Below are positions 4,205-44,514 of a stretch of 48,435 nucleotides of DNA, one piece after another. The notes beneath the pieces were generated by a model, which saw only the letters and a list, made by a program, of their open reading frames with translations, made no database searches and had not been told where the DNA came from. Positions within the stretch are counted from its first letter, which is position 1; each line of letters starts with the position of its first letter. A program made the translations under genes and the position numbers. Source of the stretch: Escherichia phage EcoIv28_Lewi; the sequence record OX461087. One strand, 5' to 3'.

Positions 4205-4424
4205 TGCGCAGCTTCCGGTTTTCCTTTCTCATACCGTGCATTTTGCCGAGAATGCCAACCAGCATGATTGAGTAGCTCACCCCTTTAACCACGATTGGTG
4301 GCAGCGCCGCTTTCAGGTCGTCCGGCATCATTACCCATACATGCATCATTGCATCAGGCCATAGCTGCAACAGCGAGCAGAATGAAATCCATGCCCCGAG
4401 CAGCCAGTTGCTTAGCTTTTTCAT
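4185..4424 (-). CDS. holin
   Basis: 79 aa, two hydrophobic segments, charged C-terminus, sits between endolysin and spanins. Confidence 0.6.
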   Translation of the reverse strand: MKKLSNWLLGAWISFCSLLQLWPDAMMHVWVMMPDDLKAALPPIVVKGVSYSIMLVGILGKMHGMRKENRKLRNDVDSR

Positions 4425-4861
4425 TGCCCCATATACATAGCGCGCTCTGCGTTACGCCTCCGTGTCAGGCCATTCATAACTTTACCAGCAGCGCGATTCC
4501 ATACGAGGAACTGGCTGGCGGCACAGGTGTAGCACTTCTCGTTATGCTTACGTAGCAGGGTTGATTTGCGGAAATTGCCAAGACCAATATTGTATGCCAG
4601 TGACACCATTGCATCGAATTGCGACTGAGTGGTTGGCGCGGTTAACAGCGCCGATACGCCATCCTCAAACTTCTTCACGTCACTATCCAGCCATGCGTTA
4701 GCCATTTCCTGTGTTACCGTCATTCCGGGCTTCACGTCTGCGCCAGTATGACCATAACCGGCGGTCCACGGTGCGCCACCTGTAGCTGGGTCAGGATAAG
4801 CGCGTAGCTCAAGCCCTTCAAACGACTTAATGAGTTCTTTGCCCCGTTGCGATAGTTTCAT
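4421..4861 (-). CDS. endolysin (phage lysozyme)
   Basis: Motif FEGLELRAYPDP...GYGHTG typical of phage lysozymes (GH24-like). Confidence 0.85.
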   Translation of the reverse strand: MKLSQRGKELIKSFEGLELRAYPDPATGGAPWTAGYGHTGADVKPGMTVTQEMANAWLDSDVKKFEDGVSALLTAPTTQSQFDAMVSLAYNIGLGNFRKSTLLRKHNEKCYTCAASQFLVWNRAAGKVMNGLTRRRNAERAMYMGQ

Positions 4862-11505: not shown

Positions 11506-11536
11506 AAGCCCTCGAATGAGGGCTTTATTTTTATCT
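11506..11536. terminator. bidirectional rho-independent terminator
   Basis: Hairpin AAGCCCTC-GAAT-GAGGGCTT plus T-run between convergent genes. Confidence 0.6.
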
Positions 11537-12955
11537 CCTGCGACGGATTAGCATTCCGCTACCGCGTTGAACGATGTGGTCTCCAAGTCCATAGCGTAAA
11601 CTATCAATCGCGTGATTGTATTTATCAACTATGTCAGGGAGTATGTTGCCTGTTAACTTATCAACCTTATAGCTATACATTGTCATCTCTTCAATGACGT
11701 GTTTACATCTTGAGTGTACGTAAATCCTGTCGCACCCACGAAGCCACGTAATCCCGTCCTCAATGCTCCCAGGCCATTTTGCGCACGGATGAATATCGAA
11801 TCCAGATCGGCGTATATGGCTTATTGTTTCAGGCCTTGCGCAATCCCCATACCATCTGTACTTCTCTGAATTTGGGAATGCTGAGCGCATCGCTTCTGGC
11901 GTGTCAGTTATCTCAAGGCCAACCTTTGCAAAGTCACGATAGATATATAGATTTCTGCGCCCATCTCCCAAATCTTCTACATATGATTCTGTTGCTGCGG
12001 TTGCATCCTGAGAAAAACCAAAGTCAATGCCATAATATGGACCTCCCCATTCTGGAGATGGCTCGAAGTCCAGCGTTTGCCATTTTCCGCCAAGCACGGC
12101 CTCTTCGGAACGCTTGTTGAATAACCCTTCATACACCCACAGATAGCGATCATAATCCACCGCCTTCATCTGGTTCATGTGCTGTTTAAGTTCTTCCGTG
12201 AACCACGGGTTGTGGACGTAGTTAACATTAACAACAACGATGTCATCATCCTGATATATGCCATCAACCATCTTGTCGATGTAAGGCTCAACAAAGTTAG
12301 TCCACGTTGGGTCCGTCTCTTTATTAGGGTTAAAAACAATGATAATTTCAGAGCCAGCCGCACGGACTGTTGGGATAAGCGTATCCCATGACACCTGACT
12401 GATGTTTTCGGATTCTTCACAGAAGACATCCGTAAGGCCAGCCATGCCCTTGATTGCGGTTATGTTTCGCCAAAGGCCACGAAAAACAAACTTTGATCTC
12501 GTTGTGTGGTGTGTTATCTCGCCATCCACGCAACGATATTCCTGAGTGTGCCCCTTCCTGTTTATCTCATCGACCAGCTCGGCATAGCTTGATTCTTTGA
12601 TTGAGTTCTGTATCTCACGGAAGCATCCGACGCGGCTGTTGCGGAATCTTGCCTTTTCTATCAGGTAAGACACGACGTTAGCCGTCTTTCCGCTTCCCCT
12701 ACCACCATAGAACACTTTGAAGCGACGAGGGTAAAGCAATAGCTCCATCCGCTTTGGTATCAGAATTGTTGGCTCTTCGTTTGTTTCCGAGACACCTGTT
12801 GCTGTCATTTTCAGGCGCTTTATAACATTAGGCGTTCCATCAGCAAGAAGTTTATCAACAATGCCAAACACAGCAGACTCAGGCTTTGCAGTTGAGTTGC
12901 CAACTACCTGTTCAAGTTTTTCGATTGCCACACTTGAGAGTCTTTTTCTAGCCAT
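11531..12955 (-). CDS. terminase large subunit
   Basis: 474 aa; Walker A-like GGRGSGKT; ATPase plus nuclease architecture. Confidence 0.9.
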   Translation of the reverse strand: MARKRLSSVAIEKLEQVVGNSTAKPESAVFGIVDKLLADGTPNVIKRLKMTATGVSETNEEPTILIPKRMELLLYPRRFKVFYGGRGSGKTANVVSYLIEKARFRNSRVGCFREIQNSIKESSYAELVDEINRKGHTQEYRCVDGEITHHTTRSKFVFRGLWRNITAIKGMAGLTDVFCEESENISQVSWDTLIPTVRAAGSEIIIVFNPNKETDPTWTNFVEPYIDKMVDGIYQDDDIVVVNVNYVHNPWFTEELKQHMNQMKAVDYDRYLWVYEGLFNKRSEEAVLGGKWQTLDFEPSPEWGGPYYGIDFGFSQDATAATESYVEDLGDGRRNLYIYRDFAKVGLEITDTPEAMRSAFPNSEKYRWYGDCARPETISHIRRSGFDIHPCAKWPGSIEDGITWLRGCDRIYVHSRCKHVIEEMTMYSYKVDKLTGNILPDIVDKYNHAIDSLRYGLGDHIVQRGSGMLIRRRR

Positions 12956-13463
12956 GATTACAAAACTCCCCGTGATTTTTCTCTCTTTCTTCCATTATCT
13001 TTTTGACTGCATCTTCAATGTTGGCGAACCGGCCAAGGTTAACCATCCTGCCATTTATATTTAATCTTGCCATCCACTTGCATCTTGATTTATCCCAATA
13101 CACACCCTTAACCCCTGATGTGTTGTTTGCCTGTAGCTTTTTGTTGTAACCATTTTGCTGATGGTCAGCCTCTCGCAGATTAACAAAACGATTATCAAGC
13201 GTATTGTTGTTTATGTGGTCTATTTCTTTTTCAGGCCAACTACCAGTCATGTAAAGCCAAGCCAGCCTGTGCGATCTATACCACTTTCTTCCAAAATGAA
13301 TATAGTGATACGGTCGCTTGCTACCAACGGAGCCGCATAATTTTATTGTTCCTGCCGGCTTCCCGGGTTTAGCCCTTCCCTGCTTGTGTGGGTTTTTCCA
13401 TGTAAAAATTCCGGTTTCAGGATTGTAATCAAGGATGTGTTTTAATTCTGCTTGCGTAAGCAT
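12948..13463 (-). CDS. HNH-AP2 homing endonuclease between terS and terL
   Basis: Motif EIDHINNNTLDNRFVNLRE plus AP2-like C-terminus; stop overlaps terL start (ATGGCTAG). Confidence 0.8.
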   Translation of the reverse strand: MLTQAELKHILDYNPETGIFTWKNPHKQGRAKPGKPAGTIKLCGSVGSKRPYHYIHFGRKWYRSHRLAWLYMTGSWPEKEIDHINNNTLDNRFVNLREADHQQNGYNKKLQANNTSGVKGVYWDKSRCKWMARLNINGRMVNLGRFANIEDAVKKIMEEREKNHGEFCNHG

Positions 13464-13562
13464 ATATAGATTCCTCATCAGGGCATCATTGAAGTGAATG
13501 CGGCAGGCGGTGATGAGTCGCTTTTCGGGTGCCCCCTAGCCGCATTGATTATTATAAATCAG

Positions 13563-14006
13563 TTACTGTTGCTGCTCCAGTAATTTCTCCAGCCGCTCAA
13601 GTCTCGCGGCGAGTTCGGTTAACTCTTTCACGTCAAGACCAACCTTAATCATAGACACAACCTGAGACGCAACATCAATTGGTAGTTCTCCACTGGAGAC
13701 AGATTGAATGACGTCCTCTATCTGCTCAACTGGAGTGGCATCTTTGCGGTATTTAAAATTAACCGGAGGTGCCATGCTTTTTTGCACGGGGCTGATGCGC
13801 AGGAATATCTCCTTCAGCATCTGCACGCCTTGAGTCGGGTTTTCCTCAGTCATCCTGATTGACGTCCTGATGAATGCGTCAAGGAATTCCTCCTCTCCAA
13901 GCCCGCATCGCTTTAATGCTTCAATAAGCCTGTTTCTGTAGCTTAATCCTCTGCCAGCAGGCTGGTATTCAGAGGAAAATTTCATTACAGGGTTTGGATT
14001 AGCCAT
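13563..14006 (-). CDS. terminase small subunit (putative)
   Basis: 147 aa immediately upstream of terL, coiled-coil C-terminus. Confidence 0.55.
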   Translation of the reverse strand: MANPNPVMKFSSEYQPAGRGLSYRNRLIEALKRCGLGEEEFLDAFIRTSIRMTEENPTQGVQMLKEIFLRISPVQKSMAPPVNFKYRKDATPVEQIEDVIQSVSSGELPIDVASQVVSMIKVGLDVKELTELAARLERLEKLLEQQQ

Positions 14007-16186: not shown

Positions 16187-16341
16187 TATGCGTACCTGTT
16201 ATATGAAAGTTTTTTACATGCGTAATATTGTTTTTCTGCATATGCAAAGGTCTTTCCAGTTTTCATCATCGCATCAATGAATTTGTGCGCGTCACCCTTT
16301 GCCTCGCAATACAGAGCTATTGCATATTTGGTAGGTTTCAT
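16186..16341 (-). CDS. small hypothetical protein (~51 aa), first gene of minus-strand small-gene operon
   Basis: ATG preceded by GAGGGTGAAGAG RBS, just downstream of a consensus promoter. Confidence 0.35.
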   Translation of the reverse strand: MKPTKYAIALYCEAKGDAHKFIDAMMKTGKTFAYAEKQYYACKKLSYNRYA

Positions 16342-16371
16342 CTCTTCACCCTCGGTTGTTCCGATGAACTC

Positions 16372-16400
16372 AATCTACATCAGTTGCGATTCTACGTCAA
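16372..16400 (-). promoter_or_regulatory. sigma70-like promoter TTGACG-N17-TAGATT
   Basis: Minus-strand -35 TTGACG (16400..16395) and -10 TAGATT (16377..16372), 17-nt spacer, ~30 nt upstream of first ORF. Confidence 0.5.
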
Positions 16401-16419
16401 CAGGAATGCGTTAAAAACG

Positions 16420-16740
16420 TGCTCGTGGGGTAAATTTTTGCCCGTGGGGCAGGTCGTGGGGCAGGTTGGTTGCCCCACGTTTTTCATCGTAAATCATTGA
16501 TTTGAATGTTTTTATTTTTCGTGGGTAAAAAGGGGCAGATTTCATACCCATCCCCTTATAAATATATTCAAATAATCCATTTGTTAATATTATGTTAATT
16601 ACTATCTATAATATGAATAATAATATTACCCATTAACCCAAATAATAATAATTTTATTATATTACATATACTTAGATGAAGTTTTCGTGGGGCAGGTTGG
16701 TTGCCCCACGTTAACCCAATTTACCCCTTTTGCAGATTTT
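16420..16740. repeat. iteron-like repeats, paired 25-bp palindromes and AT-rich spacer (putative replication origin)
   Basis: CGTGGGG(C/T)A repeated at least 5 times; identical CGTGGGGCAGGTTGGTTGCCCCACG at 16455..16479 and 16686..16710; ~180 bp of very AT-rich DNA between. Confidence 0.4.
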
Positions 16741-16747
16741 AGTTGTG

Positions 16748-16776
16748 TTGCAATGCTGGGGAGTAGGTGGTAGTAT
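16748..16776 (+). promoter_or_regulatory. sigma70-like promoter TTGCAA-N17-TAGTAT
   Basis: Read directly from sequence upstream of the plus-strand replication block. Confidence 0.45.
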
Positions 16777-16806
16777 TTTGGGGAAATACTTGATTGAGGA
16801 GCGGAA

Positions 16807-17079
16807 ATGAGCAATCACGGTGTATTATTAAAGCGCAAATTAAACAAACATGGTCGTGGTGCTGGGTGGGTTGCATCATCAAAGTCAACCACTGGGTACT
16901 ACGGTGTTGATTACCACAAGGCATCAAAAAAATTCAGAGCGAGAGTGATGGTACTCAAGAAGAGATATGAGCTTGGCATGTTTGAAACGGCAGAGGAAGC
17001 AAACGCTGCAGTTTTGAGAGCCAAGGAATGGTTATCAGAAAATCCTCATGAGAAATTTGAAACAGAGTACGAGGTTTAA
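16807..17079 (+). CDS. stand-alone AP2-domain DNA-binding protein
   Basis: GYYGV...FRARV...LGMFETAEEANAA pattern like the AP2 tail of the HNH genes, with no nuclease part. Confidence 0.6.
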   Translation: MSNHGVLLKRKLNKHGRGAGWVASSKSTTGYYGVDYHKASKKFRARVMVLKKRYELGMFETAEEANAAVLRAKEWLSENPHEKFETEYEV

Positions 17080-18633
17080 ATGATTACAGCTCAAGATATA
17101 TTCAACGAAGCAAGGGAGTTAAAAGTATCTCCGGCTCGCGTTGCCTTCCATCATGGCATGATACCAAGCTCAAATATGTGGCTTGACATCAAGGAAGGCA
17201 AGGAGCGTGATGTAACGTACTCAGAAACAGAACTCACCAGTGAGCACCGGACTGATTTGCTGTCTCGTTATGCAATCGCTGCAGCTCGTGCCGTTCAGTT
17301 CCCAATAAATACATCGTTCATGCATTTACTTGGGTGCGTTGCCAGCGCAATGACGAGAAACTTTAGCGTTGAGTATTACCATTCAGAACTTCCAGTTTCT
17401 CTTTACGTGGTTACTTCTCAGCCTCCATCAGCAGGGAAAACCGCCATCAACTCAATGCACATGAATCCGGTGAAGATTGAATATGACAACCTTTCCAAAA
17501 AGATGGAAAAGCAGATCATAAAAATAAATCTTCGCATTGAAGAGTTGATGAAGGCATACAAAGAGGCAAGCAACCAAAATGCAAAGGCACTAATCGGCGA
17601 TGATATTGCTCGCGAAAAAGAGAAGTTGGAGGAGCTTTATACAATTACATATCCACTGACGGACGCAACGCCGGAGGCTGTTCAGCATCAAGCCATTCAT
17701 GAAGGTGGATTTTTTAATCTGATAAGTGACGAGGCAAGCGTTCTTAACACATGTCTTGGCCTCTCTTACGGAAAGGAAGGTGGAAAGGCAAACGCAGAAG
17801 TCATCCTGAAGGGATGGGATGGAGGATTCATTGGTTCTGCTCGTGTTGGTCGTGGCGTTTCATCTGGTTACGTGCTTGGAAATATAAGTGTGATTGCTCA
17901 GGATGAAAGTATTGATGCCATTCTTGCCGCTGGCGACAGGGGTAACGGTCTTTCTGAACGTTTCCTGATGTTGCGAGAGCAATCAATGCTTGGCTATCGC
18001 GAACACTGGGACATGGTTAATGACTGCCCTGTAAGCAAGCCAATGCCAGACAGCTTGAGGTCGGAATATGCAAGATTTATACATAATGTTGTGTCAGCAG
18101 AAAAAACAAAACTGACGCTTCACAATGACTCAGCAAGAATGATCGGCCTGTTACGAAATCAGTGGGAGAAAAACTTCCTTCCCGGTGGTAAGTGGGACCA
18201 CGTTCTTCTTCGTGGCGCGATGGGTAAAGCTGATAAGCAAATAATCCGTCTGGCAGCAATATTTCACGCTGCTGAAAACTGGTGCGATGGAGGAAGGCGT
18301 TCAAAGATTATCGGTGAAAATGAAATTAGTCGCGCCATCAGTGTTTATGATGCACTGACAAAAACGTTCACTGATGCTGTTGAATCAAATGGATATGCTG
18401 GTGAGCGTTCTGAATTTGATGTTGTTGCAGAAAAGCTACGCTCTGCCGCTCAGAAAGGGAAAAATAGCGTAACGGTGAAGTGGCTTTATGATTCACTTAA
18501 AAACGTACGACCATTCAAAGGGATACCTAAAATTTACGACCGACTCAGGTCAAGTGTATTACCATCTCTGGAGGAGGATGGTTACTGCGTATTTATCGGA
18601 AATACTGTTCACATAAATCCGAGGTTGAAATGA
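17080..18633 (+). CDS. P-loop NTPase, putative replication protein
   Basis: 517 aa, Walker A-like PPSAGKT; first large gene of the replication block. Confidence 0.5.
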   Translation: MITAQDIFNEARELKVSPARVAFHHGMIPSSNMWLDIKEGKERDVTYSETELTSEHRTDLLSRYAIAAARAVQFPINTSFMHLLGCVASAMTRNFSVEYYHSELPVSLYVVTSQPPSAGKTAINSMHMNPVKIEYDNLSKKMEKQIIKINLRIEELMKAYKEASNQNAKALIGDDIAREKEKLEELYTITYPLTDATPEAVQHQAIHEGGFFNLISDEASVLNTCLGLSYGKEGGKANAEVILKGWDGGFIGSARVGRGVSSGYVLGNISVIAQDESIDAILAAGDRGNGLSERFLMLREQSMLGYREHWDMVNDCPVSKPMPDSLRSEYARFIHNVVSAEKTKLTLHNDSARMIGLLRNQWEKNFLPGGKWDHVLLRGAMGKADKQIIRLAAIFHAAENWCDGGRRSKIIGENEISRAISVYDALTKTFTDAVESNGYAGERSEFDVVAEKLRSAAQKGKNSVTVKWLYDSLKNVRPFKGIPKIYDRLRSSVLPSLEEDGYCVFIGNTVHINPRLK

Positions 18634-18827
18634 GTCCAGAAGATAATTGGTATGATGTTGAATGGTTTGATTGCTATCTGTGGCGTCCGCAGATAGGAAG
18701 AAATGTTATGGCATTAACTGTTGATGGTGAAAGAATTCACGCAATTTATGATGGTAATAAATTTTTATCATCAAATGATTTGGTTGAAATAATTCGCGTT
18801 GCATATTGGTGTTATGATGAGGATTGA
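18630..18827 (+). CDS. hypothetical protein (65 aa)
   Basis: Track ORF, ATGA overlap. Confidence 0.4.
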   Translation: MSPEDNWYDVEWFDCYLWRPQIGRNVMALTVDGERIHAIYDGNKFLSSNDLVEIIRVAYWCYDED

Positions 18828-18828
18828 A

Positions 18829-19245
18829 ATGAGCAAAACACACGAACTTAAAATTTTACCTGAGCACTTCTGGCCTGTCGTTACCGGGCACAAGAAATCA
18901 GAGTTAAGAAAGAATGACCGTGATTTTAAGGTTGGAGACACGATTATTCTTTATGAGTGGAATGTAGACTACACAGGAGAGAGAACAGAGAGAACCATAG
19001 TTCACATTGCTGATGTTGGCGCTTATCTTCCCGGTTATGTGCTTCTTTCCCTTAATGAGATTGCTAACTGGAAAGATGCGCGTCTTTTCGACCCTAAAGA
19101 TGGACAGGAGGTTGTTATTATTGATGCTGATCGCGTTAAGGTTACTGCGAAGTATGACGACTCAGGAATATACTGGTGCAATCACACTGGTAAGTCGCTG
19201 CGAAATGTAGCCTTCTGGACTGAGGCGCCAGAGTTCAATGAATGA
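18829..19245 (+). CDS. DUF3850 (ASCH/PUA-like) domain protein
   Basis: Motif HELKILPEHF...GHKKSELRKNDRDFKVGDTIILYEW; start trimmed to ATG after GAGGA RBS. Confidence 0.55.
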   Translation: MSKTHELKILPEHFWPVVTGHKKSELRKNDRDFKVGDTIILYEWNVDYTGERTERTIVHIADVGAYLPGYVLLSLNEIANWKDARLFDPKDGQEVVIIDADRVKVTAKYDDSGIYWCNHTGKSLRNVAFWTEAPEFNE

Positions 19246-19246
19246 C

Positions 19247-19278
19247 AAAAACCCTCCAGATGGAGGGTTTCTTTTATC
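19247..19278. terminator. bidirectional rho-independent terminator
   Basis: Hairpin AAACCCTCC-AGAT-GGAGGGTTT plus T-run. Confidence 0.6.
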
Positions 19279-20227
19279 TGCTAACTGACATTTTCTCTAT
19301 CAACTCGCCAGCATCATAAATCTTTCTTCTGATTCTCTTCGCCATCCTGATTGTGTCCGCATCATCAGGCAGCATCACCGTAAGCCCTGCGTTTTCCGCA
19401 GCGCAAAGTTCGTCAAATTTATAATTAACTATGCAGCGTAACCGTGCTTTCGTCTCATCACTAACAGAACGCACCACTTCCCACATGTTTTCCGGCGACC
19501 AGCAGCACCAGACATGTGCGCCAGTGAAGTAATGGCATTTCCACGCATCGGCATAATCGGACACCAGATAAATGAACTTCCCGTTATCTTCTCCGATTGG
19601 GCTTATCGCGCCACGAGTGAGTTTTCCGTTGATGGCTGAGTCCTTGTTGTATCCTGCGCGGAAAAAAGTTCTGAATGAATCATCATCCATGCCAATGAAT
19701 GCCACGTTGCACGGCTTCATTGTGTCAGCGCGCATCATCTCAACCGCAATAAGCTCTCCAGATTTCCCTCTGACGACGTTAACGTCGCAACCAATACCAT
19801 TTATCAATGTCCACTCATTCATCGCGACACGCGTCGTTTTATCCATGATTGCGGCGACTTCCTGCTCGGTGATGAAGTCGTCGTTATAATTTATCTTCGG
19901 TAACTCCTTCCTGATTGCCTCCAGCTTTTCGCGTGGATGCATATTCAGGAATCCTCCCAGAGCCTCCAGTGCTTCTGGAAAGCTCATGCCAGAGAGTTTC
20001 ATCAGCCAGTTCATGCCGCTACCGGAACCGCACTGATTGCAGATTGCACCGCCATCGCCTTTTGTTTCGAAGTTGTCATCAAAGCGATACCTGTCTTTTC
20101 CTGAGCATGATGGGCATGGCTGGTGCTTGCCATTGAAAACTCTGCTATCCACATTGACGATGGACATGATGGCAGCCTGCCAGTTTCTGAGCATTTTTTG
20201 CTCGATTTCCTTCCAGTCGTATCTCAT
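19274..20227 (-). CDS. DNA primase (zinc-ribbon plus TOPRIM-like)
   Basis: Motif HQPCPSCSGKDRYRF...CNQCG typical of the primase zinc ribbon; start trimmed to ATG with AGGAAG RBS. Confidence 0.7.
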   Translation of the reverse strand: MRYDWKEIEQKMLRNWQAAIMSIVNVDSRVFNGKHQPCPSCSGKDRYRFDDNFETKGDGGAICNQCGSGSGMNWLMKLSGMSFPEALEALGGFLNMHPREKLEAIRKELPKINYNDDFITEQEVAAIMDKTTRVAMNEWTLINGIGCDVNVVRGKSGELIAVEMMRADTMKPCNVAFIGMDDDSFRTFFRAGYNKDSAINGKLTRGAISPIGEDNGKFIYLVSDYADAWKCHYFTGAHVWCCWSPENMWEVVRSVSDETKARLRCIVNYKFDELCAAENAGLTVMLPDDADTIRMAKRIRRKIYDAGELIEKMSVSR

Positions 20228-20239
20228 AAAATCTTCCTG

Positions 20240-20287
20240 TTGACGATGGTGTAGATTCATTGTAATTTACTCGCATGAAACAATCAA
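20240..20287. promoter_or_regulatory. divergent promoters (primase, minus; HNH/helicase block, plus)
   Basis: Plus: TTGACG...TGTAGATT...TAATTT; minus: TTGATT-N17-TACAAT. Confidence 0.45.
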
Positions 20288-20299
20288 TCGTTACTCGCA

Positions 20300-20947
20300 A
20301 TGAAACAATTAATCGTTACAATAGAGGGTAAGAAATGGCTATCACCATCAAGAAGTGCGAGGTTTGCGGAAATGAGTTTATCGGAACTGCAAAAGCAAAA
20401 TGTTGCTCAGGAAAGTGCAGGGTTAAAAAATGCAGGAACCAAAAGAAAGTCACACATTTCACAGGAGAGGTTAAGGGAGGTTCTTGATTACAACCCTGAT
20501 ACTGGTTATTTCACTTGGATTGTCAGGCTTGGAGCAAGGACTCAGATAGGTGGAAAGCCAGGTACTGTTGATGCTGGTGGTTACCTTAAAATAGCGGTTG
20601 ACGGAAAGGCTTTTATGGCGCATCGCCTTGCTTGGATTTACTTTTATGGAGGAGATATATCAAATTCAGAAATTGACCATATTAACGGCAACAGGATGGA
20701 TAACAGGATATCTAACCTTAGGTTAGCTAACAGAAGTGAAAACAATTGGAACCAAAAGATAAAAAATAGCAACAACTCAGGGGTCAAGGGTGTTAGTTGG
20801 GATAAGGGAGCCAAAAAATGGAGAGCTCAATGTATGGTTAATGGAGTGAAGTATTTCATTGGGAGATTCAATAATATTTCAGATGCAGAGCAGGCTGTGG
20901 TTTCTTTTTGTAGAAAATTCCATGGTAAATTCGTAAACAACGGGTGA
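20300..20947 (+). CDS. HNH-AP2 homing endonuclease (start uncertain; possible frameshift with upstream zinc ribbon)
   Basis: Motif EIDHINGNRMDNRISNLR plus AP2-like C-terminus; conserved LDYNPDTG begins ~57 codons into the track ORF. Confidence 0.65.
   Translation: MKQLIVTIEGKKWLSPSRSARFAEMSLSELQKQNVAQESAGLKNAGTKRKSHISQERLREVLDYNPDTGYFTWIVRLGARTQIGGKPGTVDAGGYLKIAVDGKAFMAHRLAWIYFYGGDISNSEIDHINGNRMDNRISNLRLANRSENNWNQKIKNSNNSGVKGVSWDKGAKKWRAQCMVNGVKYFIGRFNNISDAEQAVVSFCRKFHGKFVNNG
20335..20487 (+). CDS. small zinc-ribbon ORF (~50 aa) out of frame with the downstream HNH domain
   Basis: ATG after GAGGG RBS; CEVCGN...CCSGKC pattern; ends where the conserved HNH N-terminus begins in another frame. 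Confidence 0.35.
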   Translation: MAITIKKCEVCGNEFIGTAKAKCCSGKCRVKKCRNQKKVTHFTGEVKGGS

Positions 20948-41264: not shown

Positions 41265-41603
41265 ATGAAAGATGAGTTCAAAGGTACAAAAGGTCCGTGG
41301 CAGGTTTTACCAGAAGAGGTTGATAAGCCATACATCCGAATCAGAGGCACAATTCCTGGTCACAGATACAAGGTGGCAAACGTATTAACTCCTGTTTATG
41401 AAAATGTTCATGCCAGAGAGGCTAATGAAACACGCGCAAACGCAAAGTTAATAGTTGCAGCGCCAGAATTACTCGAAGCACTTCGCCAGCTTCGCGATTA
41501 CGTTGAGGATGTTTGCGCAGTATCGCCTGATGATTGCCATGAAGACCATCCATTAAATCTGGCAAACAAAGCAATCAAGAAAGCATTAGGGAAGAAACAA
41601 TGA
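41265..41603 (+). CDS. hypothetical protein (112 aa), first gene of accessory island
   Basis: Track ORF 41247..41603 trimmed to ATG after GAGGTGAG RBS. Confidence 0.5.
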   Translation: MKDEFKGTKGPWQVLPEEVDKPYIRIRGTIPGHRYKVANVLTPVYENVHAREANETRANAKLIVAAPELLEALRQLRDYVEDVCAVSPDDCHEDHPLNLANKAIKKALGKKQ

Positions 41604-42409
41604 AAACACTAAGCAAAATCTATTCAGACAAAGAAACGCGAAACGGCATCGCTGTTAACAAAACCTATCTCGTGCCAGTGGAGCAAATCTATCTGGAGCC
41701 GGGCTACAACATCCGCGAAGCCGATGAGCAACACGTTGAATATTTCGCGCAGTGCTGGGAATCAGGGCAGCCGTTACCAGCATTAACAGTTATTCCAGAC
41801 GAGAAGGGAATCCGCATTCTTGATGGTCAGCATCGCTACCTCGGCGCACTGCGTGCCATTGAGCGTGGCGCACCAATCGTTCGTATTGAGTGCAAGGACT
41901 TTACTGGAGATGAGGCGGATAAAATCGCCTTCATGGTGTCATCCAGTCAGGGTAAGCAGCTCGACCCATTTGAACGAGCAAAGGCTTATACGCGACTGAA
42001 AGGCTTTGGCTGGACGAATGAAGAAATCGCCAAGAAGGTAGGTCGCTCAGTATCTGACGTGCAAATGCACCTGTCGCTGGGTGATGTGCCAGTGGAAGTA
42101 AAAGCGCGCATCAGTGCGGGACAAATAAGCTATGCAAATGCCGTAGCAGTAACGCGTGAGCATGGTGACGATGCGGTTAAAGTTATCGACGAGGCCGTGG
42201 AAGAGGCGAAGGTGCGAGGCAAGGATAAAGTTACAGCGAAGGTACTAAAGTCGAAAAAGATTAAGCCAGTAGACCGTCTGATTGAGTTATTGAAGCCAGC
42301 AGACCACGTGATTCTTCCTGCCGGTCATGTGGTGGCAGAAGATGAGGAATTTATTCAGATTCCTGTTACTGATATTCACGAGGTTATGGCAATTCTGGAG
42401 AAGATGTGA
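41600..42409 (+). CDS. ParB-like protein (ParB/Srx N-terminal domain plus HTH)
   Basis: Motifs YNIRE and ILDGQHRYLGALRA; HTH-like WTNEEIAKKVGRSVSDV. Confidence 0.75.
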   Translation: MKTLSKIYSDKETRNGIAVNKTYLVPVEQIYLEPGYNIREADEQHVEYFAQCWESGQPLPALTVIPDEKGIRILDGQHRYLGALRAIERGAPIVRIECKDFTGDEADKIAFMVSSSQGKQLDPFERAKAYTRLKGFGWTNEEIAKKVGRSVSDVQMHLSLGDVPVEVKARISAGQISYANAVAVTREHGDDAVKVIDEAVEEAKVRGKDKVTAKVLKSKKIKPVDRLIELLKPADHVILPAGHVVAEDEEFIQIPVTDIHEVMAILEKM

Positions 42410-42600
42410 TGAGTAAGTATGAAGAGTTGGACTTGAAGATATTGCACATGCTTTCCGTTAAACCAACTCTTGTTTTTGATATATGGCTTAAGTTTCGTGA
42501 TGATGTTAGAAACATTACGGTTATTGACAGGAGGATGCAGGCACTGAAAAAGAAAGGTTTTGTTTATAACGTTCGCGGATGTGGTTGGGTTAAGCTATGA
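42406..42600 (+). CDS. hypothetical protein (64 aa)
   Basis: Track ORF, ATGA-coupled. Confidence 0.4.
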   Translation: MMSKYEELDLKILHMLSVKPTLVFDIWLKFRDDVRNITVIDRRMQALKKKGFVYNVRGCGWVKL

Positions 42601-42770
42601 CACCAGAACAATTCATCGAAAAACAACTTCGCATCAAGCTGCCTGACATCGACCAGATGGCAATTGATGCGGCTATTCAGTATTACAAGCGCAATCAGAG
42701 CGCAAAGAAGGGTGGCATTTTTGAAGAATGCCTGAAGGTTGCAAAACAACATATGATTAAGGTGAAGTGA
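42597..42770 (+). CDS. small hypothetical protein (57 aa)
   Basis: ATG..TGA ORF filling the gap, coupled at both ends. Confidence 0.35.
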   Translation: MTPEQFIEKQLRIKLPDIDQMAIDAAIQYYKRNQSAKKGGIFEECLKVAKQHMIKVK

Positions 42771-43306
42771 TGAAACTAAAAATAAGCAAACTATTACTTG
42801 AATCAGCATTAATCTTTCAGGCGCGCAATGATGTGCGTTACTACCTGAACGGCATCTGCTTCATGGCTGATGGTCGCGTAGCATCAACTGACGGGCATCG
42901 CGCATTTATTGGTGGCAGCCATGATAATAAGCTGACAGAAAATGTGATCATCAAGATTAGCAAGTCGCCAACAAAACGCTATGAGTACGCCATCATTGAT
43001 ACCAAGTCGAAAATTGCAACGTATCATGATGAAGCTGGCGCGATGGTTGGTGCTGGTATCTGCGAAGAGATTGATGGTCGATTCCCTGATATTGATCGCG
43101 TGATACCAAAGGAGACGAAAGCAGCAGAGGAAATTGGTTTCAATGCTGGCTATCTGGTTGATATTGAGAAAGTGGCGAAGCTGTTTAATCCTAAATTCTG
43201 TGGTGTTAAATTTGAGCTGAATGGAAATACAAATGCCGCAGTTTGCTGCCTTAGTGCGCCAACAGGCGAGACTGCGAAGATTGTTGTTATGCCTATGCGT
43301 CTGTAG
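42770..43306 (+). CDS. truncated DnaN-like protein (mini beta sliding clamp)
   Basis: Segments NDVRYYLNG, TDGHR, DGRFPD..RVIPK, EIGFN..Y and C-terminal VVMPMRL match E. coli DnaN domain II/III elements as recalled; only 178 aa versus 366. Confidence 0.6.
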   Translation: MKLKISKLLLESALIFQARNDVRYYLNGICFMADGRVASTDGHRAFIGGSHDNKLTENVIIKISKSPTKRYEYAIIDTKSKIATYHDEAGAMVGAGICEEIDGRFPDIDRVIPKETKAAEEIGFNAGYLVDIEKVAKLFNPKFCGVKFELNGNTNAAVCCLSAPTGETAKIVVMPMRL

Positions 43307-43348
43307 CAATCAAAAGACCCTGACTAGGTGTCTTGTTTATAATAAATG

Positions 43349-43377
43349 TTGAAGTAGATACCTAATGACCGCAATAT
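43349..43377 (+). promoter_or_regulatory. candidate internal promoter TTGAAG-N17-CAATAT
   Basis: Read from sequence ~35 nt upstream of the PP-loop gene. Confidence 0.3.
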
Positions 43378-43410
43378 GAGTGATGAAGATATAAGAAAGG
43401 AGCGACGGAC

Positions 43411-44223
43411 ATGAATCAAGTTATTAGCTTTTCAGGCGGTAGAACTTCAGCGTTTATGACGCTGGAGGTACTAAAGATACACCCAGAAGCCGAAATTATC
43501 TTTATGGATACTGGAGCTGAGCACCCAAAAACGTATGAGTTTGTTCGCAACTTCGCAAAGCACTTCAATATCGCTATAACATGTATTCGCGTGGTTCCAA
43601 ATATGCAAATGCGTAAGGCAAGTACGTATGAGCAGCTAACCGTCGATGAGATTGGTCCAGACCTTGAGCCGTGGCGGAGAATGTTGCGTAAGTATGGTCA
43701 TCCATACGTTGGTGGAGCATTCTGCACCGACAGAATGAAGACCGTGCCATTCACTAAATACTGTAATGAAAAATACGGGAAAGGAAACTACGAAAGATGG
43801 CTTGGCATCAGGTCCGATGAACCAAACCGGTTGAAGAACCGAGGTGACGGTTTTCATTACCTTGCAGACATTAGCGACTTTGAAAAGCAGGATATCCTTG
43901 ACTGGTGGTCAATGCAACCATTCGACCTTGGTATTCAGGAGCATCTTGGTAATTGCGTTTTCTGCATCAAGAAGAGCCTGCAGAAAGTTGCACTTGCTGC
44001 AAAGGATGAGCCGGAACTTGCTGCTGAGTTTTGGAAGATGATTCAGGATGAAGATAAAAAATCAGACAAGATAATGTATCGCTCAAACAGAAGTCTTGGC
44101 GACGTTATAGTTTTATTTAACGATGTAAGCAGGGATGAACTGGCATCACGAATGACGTCAATGCGCCAGTACGATACTGGTTCATGCAGCGAGAGTTGCG
44201 AAGCATTTTCTAATGAGAATTAA
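43411..44223 (+). CDS. PAPS-reductase-like PP-loop ATP pyrophosphatase
   Basis: PP-loop SFSGGRTS, CTDRMKTVPF motif, C-terminal Cys cluster. Confidence 0.75.
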   Translation: MNQVISFSGGRTSAFMTLEVLKIHPEAEIIFMDTGAEHPKTYEFVRNFAKHFNIAITCIRVVPNMQMRKASTYEQLTVDEIGPDLEPWRRMLRKYGHPYVGGAFCTDRMKTVPFTKYCNEKYGKGNYERWLGIRSDEPNRLKNRGDGFHYLADISDFEKQDILDWWSMQPFDLGIQEHLGNCVFCIKKSLQKVALAAKDEPELAAEFWKMIQDEDKKSDKIMYRSNRSLGDVIVLFNDVSRDELASRMTSMRQYDTGSCSESCEAFSNEN

Positions 44224-44226
44224 TGA

Positions 44227-44256
44227 CAAGCCCTCAATCGAGGGCTTTATTTATTC
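44227..44256. terminator. bidirectional rho-independent terminator
   Basis: Hairpin AAGCCCTC-AATC-GAGGGCTT plus T-run. Confidence 0.6.
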
Positions 44257-44472
44257 ATCTTCGCTACCTGCGTGACGACGGCGTTTTTGTTTGCTGTCAC
44301 CTTCTTTTGTATGCGTGGCAACCTCAAACGTCTTTGGCAGGTCAGGCATAATGCGCAGCTTTGGTAGCAGATGCTCGTCTGGTTCGGTAATCACCTCGCC
44401 AAGCTGCAATTCACGAATCTTGCCTTTCTCTTTAACAAAGATTCCGCGAGCGATGACTTCGTATTTAGCCAT
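44251..44472 (-). CDS. hypothetical protein (73 aa)
   Basis: Track ORF downstream of major capsid gene. Confidence 0.45.
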   Translation of the reverse strand: MAKYEVIARGIFVKEKGKIRELQLGEVITEPDEHLLPKLRIMPDLPKTFEVATHTKEGDSKQKRRRHAGSEDE

Positions 44473-44514
44473 TATTCACCTCAAATTCACAAAGGGGCTT
44501 TCGCCCCTTTTCTA

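Follow-up and report, generated by a model that had tools for sequence, protein, structure and literature searches.

A repeat array beside an MCM-like helicase gene as a probable replication origin of Escherichia phage EcoIv28_Lewi

Introduction

Where does DNA replication begin in Escherichia phage EcoIv28_Lewi, and which protein recognises the place? We addressed this question in the 48,435-nucleotide sequence of the phage (record OX461087, called the window below), focusing on the intergenic region 16401-16740. This region separates a leftward block of small genes from a rightward block in which a gene for a 90-amino-acid (aa) AP2-like protein is followed by one for a 517-aa DUF3987 helicase, and it carries an array of short G-rich repeats around very AT-rich DNA. 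The initial annotation, made from the letters alone, had taken iterons and an unwinding element beside replication genes for a candidate origin, and comparison with related phages supports that proposal. The region is probably a replication origin whose partner is the following helicase gene, since the array accompanies DUF3987 helicase genes across very different phages and was exchanged together with the helicase in Salmonella virus VSt472.

The window's relatives are Salmonella phage Vi II-E1 (Macdonaldcampvirus), IME207, DS8, Akira, Escherichia phages C1 and HC6, and Bas78/79. In the records of Vi II-E1 (AM491472) and Akira (MK599416), both palindromes of the array are already marked as repeat_region, with no function given; the Vi II-E1 record has GTGGGGCAACCAACCTGCCCCACGA twice, at the same place as the palindromes of the window, and the Akira record was opened in the middle of the region. 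Left unannotated in these two records are the non-palindromic repeat copies, the AT-rich core and the link to the helicase. The papers on fp01 and on Macdonaldcampvirus contain nothing about an origin, and our literature search turned up no account of a replication origin in any phage with a DUF3987 (MCM-like) helicase. DUF3987 proteins are classed as MCM-related superfamily 6 replicative helicases with a C-terminal winged helix (PMC4889955), and one member has been shown to have 5'-3' helicase activity and to bind its primase (PMC11724360).

Results

Heptamer repeats on both sides of an AT-rich core

The motif CGTGGGGYA occurs six times within 16424-16710, at 16424(+), 16443(+), 16455(+), 16471(-), 16686(+) and 16702(-), and only twice in the rest of the 48,435 bases (3540 and 31581). 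For the whole window this amounts to 8 copies where 0.31 are expected, and none of 100 shuffled sequences gave 8. The initial count of at least five copies is thereby confirmed, as are the two identical 25-bp palindromes with a 9-bp stem and a 7-nt loop, 231 bp apart from start to start. These palindromes are exact copies of CGTGGGGCAGGTTGGTTGCCCCACG, of which none is expected, and they are direct repeats of one another (coordinates in Table 1); the identical stretch around each is 28 nt long (TCGTGGGGCAGGTTGGTTGCCCCACGTT). Palindrome 1 is followed by T5 (16480-16484) and so resembles a terminator, on the plus strand only, while reading of the sequence found no T-run after palindrome 2 on either strand. 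Further out, the leftmost repeat and 16718-16727 form an imperfect inverted pair (GGGGTAAATT / AATTTACCCC).

Although the 9-mer motif is real, the unit that is conserved is shorter. Many repeat copies are non-palindromic. In the palindromes of relatives, the spacer or loop varies both between genomes and between the two copies of one genome, and a C/A position in the arms is uncompensated in about one third of cases (counted by eye). Because the loops vary and the arm position is so often uncompensated, with TGGGG(C/A/T)A alone staying constant, the recognition unit appears to be this heptamer rather than the stem, and the CG prefix is specific to the closest relatives of the window. TGGGG[ACT]A occurs 21 times in the window, with 7 copies within 16400-16800; the other 14 are close to the number that chance predicts for the whole window (about 13).

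The DNA between the palindromes (16480-16685) is 206 bp long rather than the roughly 180 bp first given, and is AT-rich as described (guanine-plus-cytosine (GC) content 22%). By nearest-neighbour energy, no other 100-bp duplex of the window is as unstable as 16570-16669, which has a GC content of 14% and lies more than five standard deviations from the mean. This DNA belongs to the AT-rich core, the proposed unwinding element, which also contains short (AAT)n tracts and weak C-run copies (TACCCAT at 16627-16633 and TTAACCCAA at 16633-16641). The core is, however, more than an AT-rich stretch. Between the 99% and 87% groups of relatives (groups are named throughout by the identity of their helicase protein to the 517-aa protein of the window), 16580-16640 is 80-89% identical, at least as high as coding DNA, and it includes a promoter-like site whose TATAAT and surroundings are kept in all 87-99% relatives. 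In relatives without the AP2 gene this site may be a rightward promoter, or it may be an origin-activating promoter.

The array accompanies DUF3987 helicase genes in distant phages

About eight lineages have the same layout beside a DUF3987 helicase gene, the most distant of these helicases being 36% identical in protein sequence. At 26 related loci with helicases 86-99% identical, the intergenic order is retained: a leftward promoter-like site (P_L), TGGGGTA and further plus-strand copies, palindrome 1, an AT-rich stretch, a tandem middle pair, the AT-rich core, palindrome 2 and, after it, one to three extra minus-strand copies (for example TGCCCCAaggcTGCCCCAtaTGCCCCA at locus L013). The middle pair, which is degenerate in the window, has tandem counterparts in the 87% group (TGGGGCAgTGGGGCA), the 61% group (TGGGGtaaTGGGG) and Vibrio phage D81 (cgTGGGTAAaaaTGGGGTA). 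Beyond the closest relatives, the layout is present in the 61% group with the repeat TGGGGTA, in Pectobacterium phage Ymer (OP748252; helicase 49% identical) with TGGGGAA, in the Vibrio myophage D81 (39.5%, 79-kb genome) with TGGGGGTA, and at loci L122, L123 and L124 (36-42%).

In D81, the element is the densest TGGGG cluster of the genome, and the least stable 100 bp of the 79 kb again fall in the homologous core (z 5.5). The only proteins that the window and D81 have in common are the DUF3987 helicase, the primase, a superfamily 2 (SF2) helicase, a RecE-like exonuclease and SSB; no common terminase or virion proteins were found between the two.

The position of the element relative to the helicase gene is flexible, being upstream in some lineages and downstream in others. 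At L123 it is found about 1 kb downstream of the helicase; at L122 and L124 it directly follows the helicase, and the genes on its two sides share one strand. As the L122 and L124 arrangement shows, divergent promoters are not needed. The orientation of the heptamers differs between the two sides of the core: across 12 elements we counted 34 plus-strand to 18 minus-strand copies on the left and 24 to 36 on the right (Fisher p = 0.008, from lineages that are not independent of each other). One lineage keeps the upstream layout with a changed repeat, namely L125 (Logan SRR21285553 contig, 4340-4680; helicase 39% identical), where the repeats read TGGGCG/CGCCCA. This lineage would be useful for comparing specificities.

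Several smaller features of the AT-rich DNA were also observed. A short trinucleotide tract lies in the right half of the core in nearly every lineage (16615-16652 in the window) and takes the form of (AAT)4 in the window, (ACT)3(ATT)3 in the 87% group, (ACT)5 at L124, (TAG)4 at L122, (AGT)4 at L123 and (AAT)7 in the T1-like phage Sd1 (L033); the equivalent place was also compared at L013 and L126. After the tract, immediately ahead of palindrome 2, comes a conserved stretch resembling ATACATATACTTAGA. To the right of the middle repeats, TTTCATACCCATCCCC (window 16540-16557) is 82% conserved between the 99% and 87% groups, and together with GGGGCAGA it makes a small terminator-like hairpin on the minus strand (16549-16533). 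In Shigella phage Sd1 itself (Drexlerviridae; L033 950-1240), a divergent intergenic region about 2 kb upstream of the DUF3987 helicase gene has inverted CGTATCC/GGATACG and GTATAC repeats around an (AAT)n-rich core that is less stable than any other 100 bp of the 6.4-kb locus. This region may be an equivalent T1-like origin with a different repeat.

Repeats and helicase are exchanged together in VSt472

Salmonella virus VSt472 (Skatevirus, MH424446.1) has nearly all of its genes in common with the window, including the large terminase subunit TerL (96.8% identity), the putative small subunit TerS (98.4%), the primase (93.9%), the SF2 helicase (84%), the exonuclease (92%) and SSB (86%). Nucleotide homology ends at 16400 and returns at 19241, so exactly 16401-19240 is replaced, and the proteins of the genes that flank this segment are 84-98% identical. 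The replacement (about 41550-44473 of MH424446.1; L126/L127) contains a 73-aa gene, an array of eight TTATCC/GGATAA repeats around an AT-rich core, with no TGGGGNA in the array, and a gene for a 495-aa helicase. This helicase matches the helicase part of primase-helicase fusion families and has no BLASTP similarity to the 517-aa protein of the window.

Judged from these sequences, repeat type and helicase type are exchanged together. Specificities appear matched more widely as well: the repeats differ with the helicase in VSt472 (TTATCC) and at L125 (TGGGCG), and T1-like phages have no TGGGG array. On its left, the exchangeable cassette is bounded by the -35 hexamer of P_L, TTGACG, which is retained in the 87% group, the 61% group and VSt472. 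As a further observation, about 100 of the 131 phage records that match the window share its left flank only, and these may carry the VSt472-type cassette or another alternative.

The exchange also narrows down which protein could read the repeats. The terminase, primase, SF2 helicase, SSB and the products of the leftward genes are excluded as specific readers, because VSt472 keeps them despite its different repeats. The primase is a likely partner at the origin, and since it is so well conserved next to a different set of repeats, it is not the specificity factor of that origin. We also considered the heptamers as start sites of the primase, giving outward leading-strand primers. This idea fits the orientation bias and is unlikely to be the main explanation, again given the primase of VSt472.

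Alternative explanations

The alternative that survives best is that the region controls transcription and nothing else, with replication starting elsewhere. The repeats would then be operators for a regulator encoded in the cassette (possibly the helicase regulating its own operon), and the palindromes would be terminators, insulators or 5' RNA hairpins of the divergent early promoters. We consider this unlikely, although much of the region is compatible with it. P_L lies just left of the array, but the repeats do not overlap its -35 and -10 hexamers. Palindrome 1 with its T5 fits a plus-strand terminator, but no plus-strand gene ends upstream of it, and palindrome 2 has no such T-run. Hairpins alone are insufficient in any case, given the many non-palindromic copies and the uncompensated arm position. 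Where relatives lack the AP2 gene, the space from palindrome 2 to the first gene is too short to hold another promoter, and rightward transcription therefore probably runs through palindrome 2. A transcriptional role is also consistent with the element preceding an operon at L124, and with the conserved promoter-like site in a core that is as conserved as coding DNA. What transcription alone leaves unexplained is why the core should be the least stable part of the genome in the window and again in D81, and why the repeats are paired with the helicase; moreover, the small proteins encoded beside the array differ among phages with the same repeats. In iteron plasmids, the initiator also represses its own promoter at inverted repeats. 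Both roles often coexist in iteron replicons, and the alternative therefore competes mainly in its exclusive form. A role in transcription may well coexist with origin function here.

A packaging (pac) site, in which the repeats would be bound by the small terminase subunit and headful packaging would begin with a cut in the AT-rich centre, has a far slimmer chance. The argument for it comes mostly from the genus of Ymer, whose records (L036 1-260, L038 1-130; Amona PQ008971; Pappous PQ008973) start and end inside the TGGGGAA element. The starts lie right after the tandem middle repeats and 240 bp from the gene annotated 'terminase', and according to the authors the site was predicted by PhageTerm for 2 of 7 phages. 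In P1 and SPP1, repeats flank the cut site, an arrangement typical of pac sites. The window element heads the operon that contains the terminase, but the putative terS gene is about 2.4 kb away, and in D81 the element is about 24 kb from terL. More decisively, VSt472 combines a nearly identical terminase with wholly different repeats (TTATCC), while the window, Ymer and D81 share TGGGG repeats with no detectable terminase similarity. Only one of about 17 metagenomic contigs breaks within the element, which by a rough estimate is not significant. In the Ymer genus, origin and pac may coincide, or the record ends may reflect a read-start bias of AT-rich DNA.

The weakest alternative concerns the AP2 protein, which the initial annotation had named as a possible binder of the repeats. 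In phages with a 99% identical helicase and an intact TGGGG array, the gene slot ahead of the helicase holds either the AP2 gene or one of two unrelated types (B and C) encoding 66-79 aa, of which the window has no copy. An AP2 protein that binds the repeats as initiator or repressor would suit the DNA binding of AP2 domains and the place of its gene at the head of the rightward block, but we regard it as highly improbable, considering this replacement, the match of the 90-aa protein to the DNA-binding region of an HNH endonuclease family (phrog_99) and the lack of any tblastn match to its open reading frame in the genomes of Ymer and D81, both of which keep TGGGG arrays. The AP2 protein is probably not part of the origin mechanism, judging by its patchy occurrence, and in Vi II-E1 its gene is annotated as a pseudogene.

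The slot itself shows a varied set of occupants. The AP2 protein, types B and C, an 87-aa protein at L037, a 76-aa protein in Ymer and a 103-aa YdaS-like protein in D81 belong to no clear family and have no mutual similarity. In D81 (L035 3148-3459, a weak match) and at L125 (4718-4996), the gene just before the helicase encodes a YdaS-like helix-turn-helix protein. The slot may often be filled by proteins of varying fold that bind DNA, and regulation of the replication operon is one possibility for their role.

Some further candidates were tried and rejected. A DnaA-dependent origin lacks the enrichment of DnaA boxes (TTATNCACA) that it would call for: the region has one match with one mismatch (16612-16620), and the window has 49 against 56 expected. 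Dense G-runs in the 61% group brought up a G-quadruplex, but the window and Ymer are without four closely spaced runs (judged by eye). Hairpins of the lambda nut type do not fit, as the palindromes are direct repeats, so that divergent transcripts would carry different loops, and the loops vary. A known RNA family was likewise rejected, with Rfam giving nothing at gathering score for 16200-16900 and only three matches below threshold.

The helicase as candidate initiator

Of the proteins compared, elimination leaves the helicase alone as a consistent partner of the repeats. Helicases that are 99% identical, each with its TGGGG array, are preceded by different small genes, and the other genes are excluded by VSt472. 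We propose from these comparisons that the 517-aa helicase is the initiator, which would read the iterons and load itself. In a structure model, its fold is closest to MCM, with an MCM-like core followed by a helix-strand-helix-helix-hairpin at residues 442-512. The identity to this winged-helix domain of the window is 46% in D81 and 32-34% in T1-like phages.

The sequence of events that we infer is as follows. The helicase would bind the TGGGG(C/A/T)A repeats, which form two clusters with opposite orientation bias on the two sides of the core. Binding would melt the core, where two helicase rings could then load themselves, and the primase would prime synthesis in both directions, so that replication would initiate here. 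The palindromes are inverted repeat pairs and could additionally be operators or boundary elements for the divergent promoters.

Several observations weigh against an origin read by the helicase. First, the conserved promoter-like site of the core and the terminator-like palindrome 1 mean that the conservation could partly or wholly serve transcription. Second, the Ymer-genus records start inside the homologous element. Third, the presumed recognition helix is poorly conserved among lineages that share TGGGG, and an attempt to relate repeat to winged helix by co-variation was weakly informative. Fourth, we found no TGGGG array near the DUF3987 helicases of T1-like phages (35-39% identical), whose divergent intergenic regions have other repeats. 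In addition, GC skew reaches its minimum at about 16 kb, where the direction of transcription also changes, and because of this coincidence the minimum was not used as independent support.

A broader proposal is that phage DUF3987 helicases are self-loading initiators that read TGGG-type heptamers and assemble as two opposed rings at an AT-rich core with no loader, and that a 2.84-kb cassette of origin and helicase is exchanged, against the TTATCC type, among near-identical siphophages of Salmonella and E. coli. We put this forward tentatively, as a possibility somewhat short of an even chance.

Organisation of the locus

The setting of the region, between the small-gene operon and a replication block with AP2 and P-loop proteins, agrees with what had first been described, and the flanking genes were confirmed (Table 1). 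The leftward block begins at 16341. On the right, the promoter-like site ahead of the AP2 gene is present only in relatives that carry this gene. Besides the two HNH genes of Table 1, a third homing-endonuclease-like HNH gene of the window lies at 1902-2414; its assignment is indirect, from similarity to a VSt472 homing endonuclease and from an AP2-like segment. The 90-aa AP2 protein resembles the detached DNA-binding module of such an HNH homing endonuclease.

Table 1. Features of the candidate origin and its surroundings in the window
Feature	Position	Strand	Remarks
TerL (large terminase subunit)	11531..12955
HNH endonuclease	12948..13478		between putative terS and terL; homing-endonuclease-like
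Putative TerS (small terminase subunit)	13563..14006		by position only
P_L, sigma-70-type promoter-like site TTGACG-N17-TAGATT	16372..16400	-	promoter scan; heads small-gene and terminase operon
Exchangeable origin-plus-helicase cassette	16401..19240		array, AT-rich core, small gene, helicase, DUF551 and DUF3850/ASCH genes
Iteron L1, CGTGGGGTA	16424..16432	+	outermost left copy; TGGGGTA here in all 87-99% relatives
Iteron L2, CGTGGGGCA	16443..16451	+	direct repeat of L3, 12-bp period
Palindrome 1	16455..16479		L3 (+, 16455-16463), 7-nt spacer, L4 (-, 16471-16479)
Degenerate middle iteron pair, CGTGGGTAA-aaa-GGGGCA	16520..16537	+
AT-rich core	16558..16680		proposed unwinding element; GC 14.6% (window 45.5%)
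Promoter-like site TTAATA-N17-TATAAT (10/12)	16584..16612	+	inside core; conserved
Palindrome 2	16686..16710		R1 (+, 16686-16694), 7-nt spacer, R2 (-, 16702-16710)
Degenerate copies TTAACCCAA, then TACCCCT	16711..16728	-	right of palindrome 2; outermost right arm, pairs with L1
Weak promoter-like site TTGCAA-N17-TAGTAT (8/12)	16748..16776	+	ahead of AP2 gene; below scan threshold, read from sequence
90-aa stand-alone protein, weak AP2 match	16807..17079	+	Pfam AP2 below cut-off
517-aa DUF3987 P-loop helicase	17080..18633	+	gene start 370 bp from palindrome 2
65-aa gene			downstream of helicase gene; same position holds a DUF551 gene in phage Akira
DUF3850/ASCH gene			after 65-aa gene, right block
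Primase	19274..20260	-	zinc-ribbon of T7 gp4 primase-helicase type (Pfam PF08273)
HNH-AP2 endonuclease	20300..20947		between primase and SF2 helicase; homing-endonuclease-like
SF2 helicase gene			right of HNH-AP2 endonuclease

Discussion

If the region is an origin read by the helicase, it would be a defined DNA site paired with an MCM-type helicase that needs no separate loader, and thus a simple bacterial model of such a helicase recognising and opening an origin alone. It would also account for a repeat left unexplained in GenBank records. DUF3987 helicases are used by the relatives of Vi II-E1 and, more distantly, by the very common T1-like phages. Origin and helicase would then move between phages as one exchangeable unit and set apart types of replication specificity, much as matched pairs of origin and initiator do in lambdoid phages. 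Exchange as a unit bears on phage mosaicism, on predicting cross-replication among co-infecting phages and on the engineering of therapeutic Salmonella and E. coli phages.

Short repeats bound by an initiator beside an AT-rich stretch are familiar from P4 (alpha protein with ori and crr) and from lambda (O protein with ori-lambda), where related phages inherit and exchange origin and initiator as a matched pair. In P4, alpha is a fusion of primase and superfamily 3 helicase, with ori and crr kilobases apart, whereas the window has a separate primase. In lambda, ori is located within gene O, whose product recruits the host DnaB through P; the window origin, in contrast, would be intergenic, with an MCM-like helicase as the candidate initiator. 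Helicases that read the origin themselves are known from SV40 large T and papillomavirus E1, AAA+ proteins for which inverted G-rich sites flank easily melted DNA and two opposed rings form. The MCM-like fold of the 517-aa protein is the likeness to these proteins and to the MCM double hexamer; all else is analogy, and the DNA-binding domains are not homologous. Among the genes annotated near the helicase, we recognised no loader of the ORC/Cdc6 type.

The closest described system is the Rep-ori pair of Staphylococcus aureus pathogenicity islands (SaPIs), which the window element resembles on every testable feature, as far as an analogy goes. SaPI Rep is a self-loading AAA+ helicase whose C-terminal winged helix reads iterons of 5-6 nt; next to rep, the origin has 6-12 of these iterons, which form two oppositely oriented sets flanking an AT-rich centre, and iteron specificity is particular to each island (PMC9371898). 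The window region similarly has 8-10 heptamers around an AT-rich core and adjoins a helicase with a predicted C-terminal winged helix, and matched specificity is implied here by the VSt472 swap and by L125. The 517-aa helicase is nevertheless not a member of the Rep family, having no detectable sequence relationship or close structural relationship to Rep/PriRep. The element would thus be of a known kind, an iteron origin beside its initiator helicase, and what would be new is the MCM-like DUF3987 family in that role and the discrete 2.84-kb cassette in which origin and helicase are exchanged.

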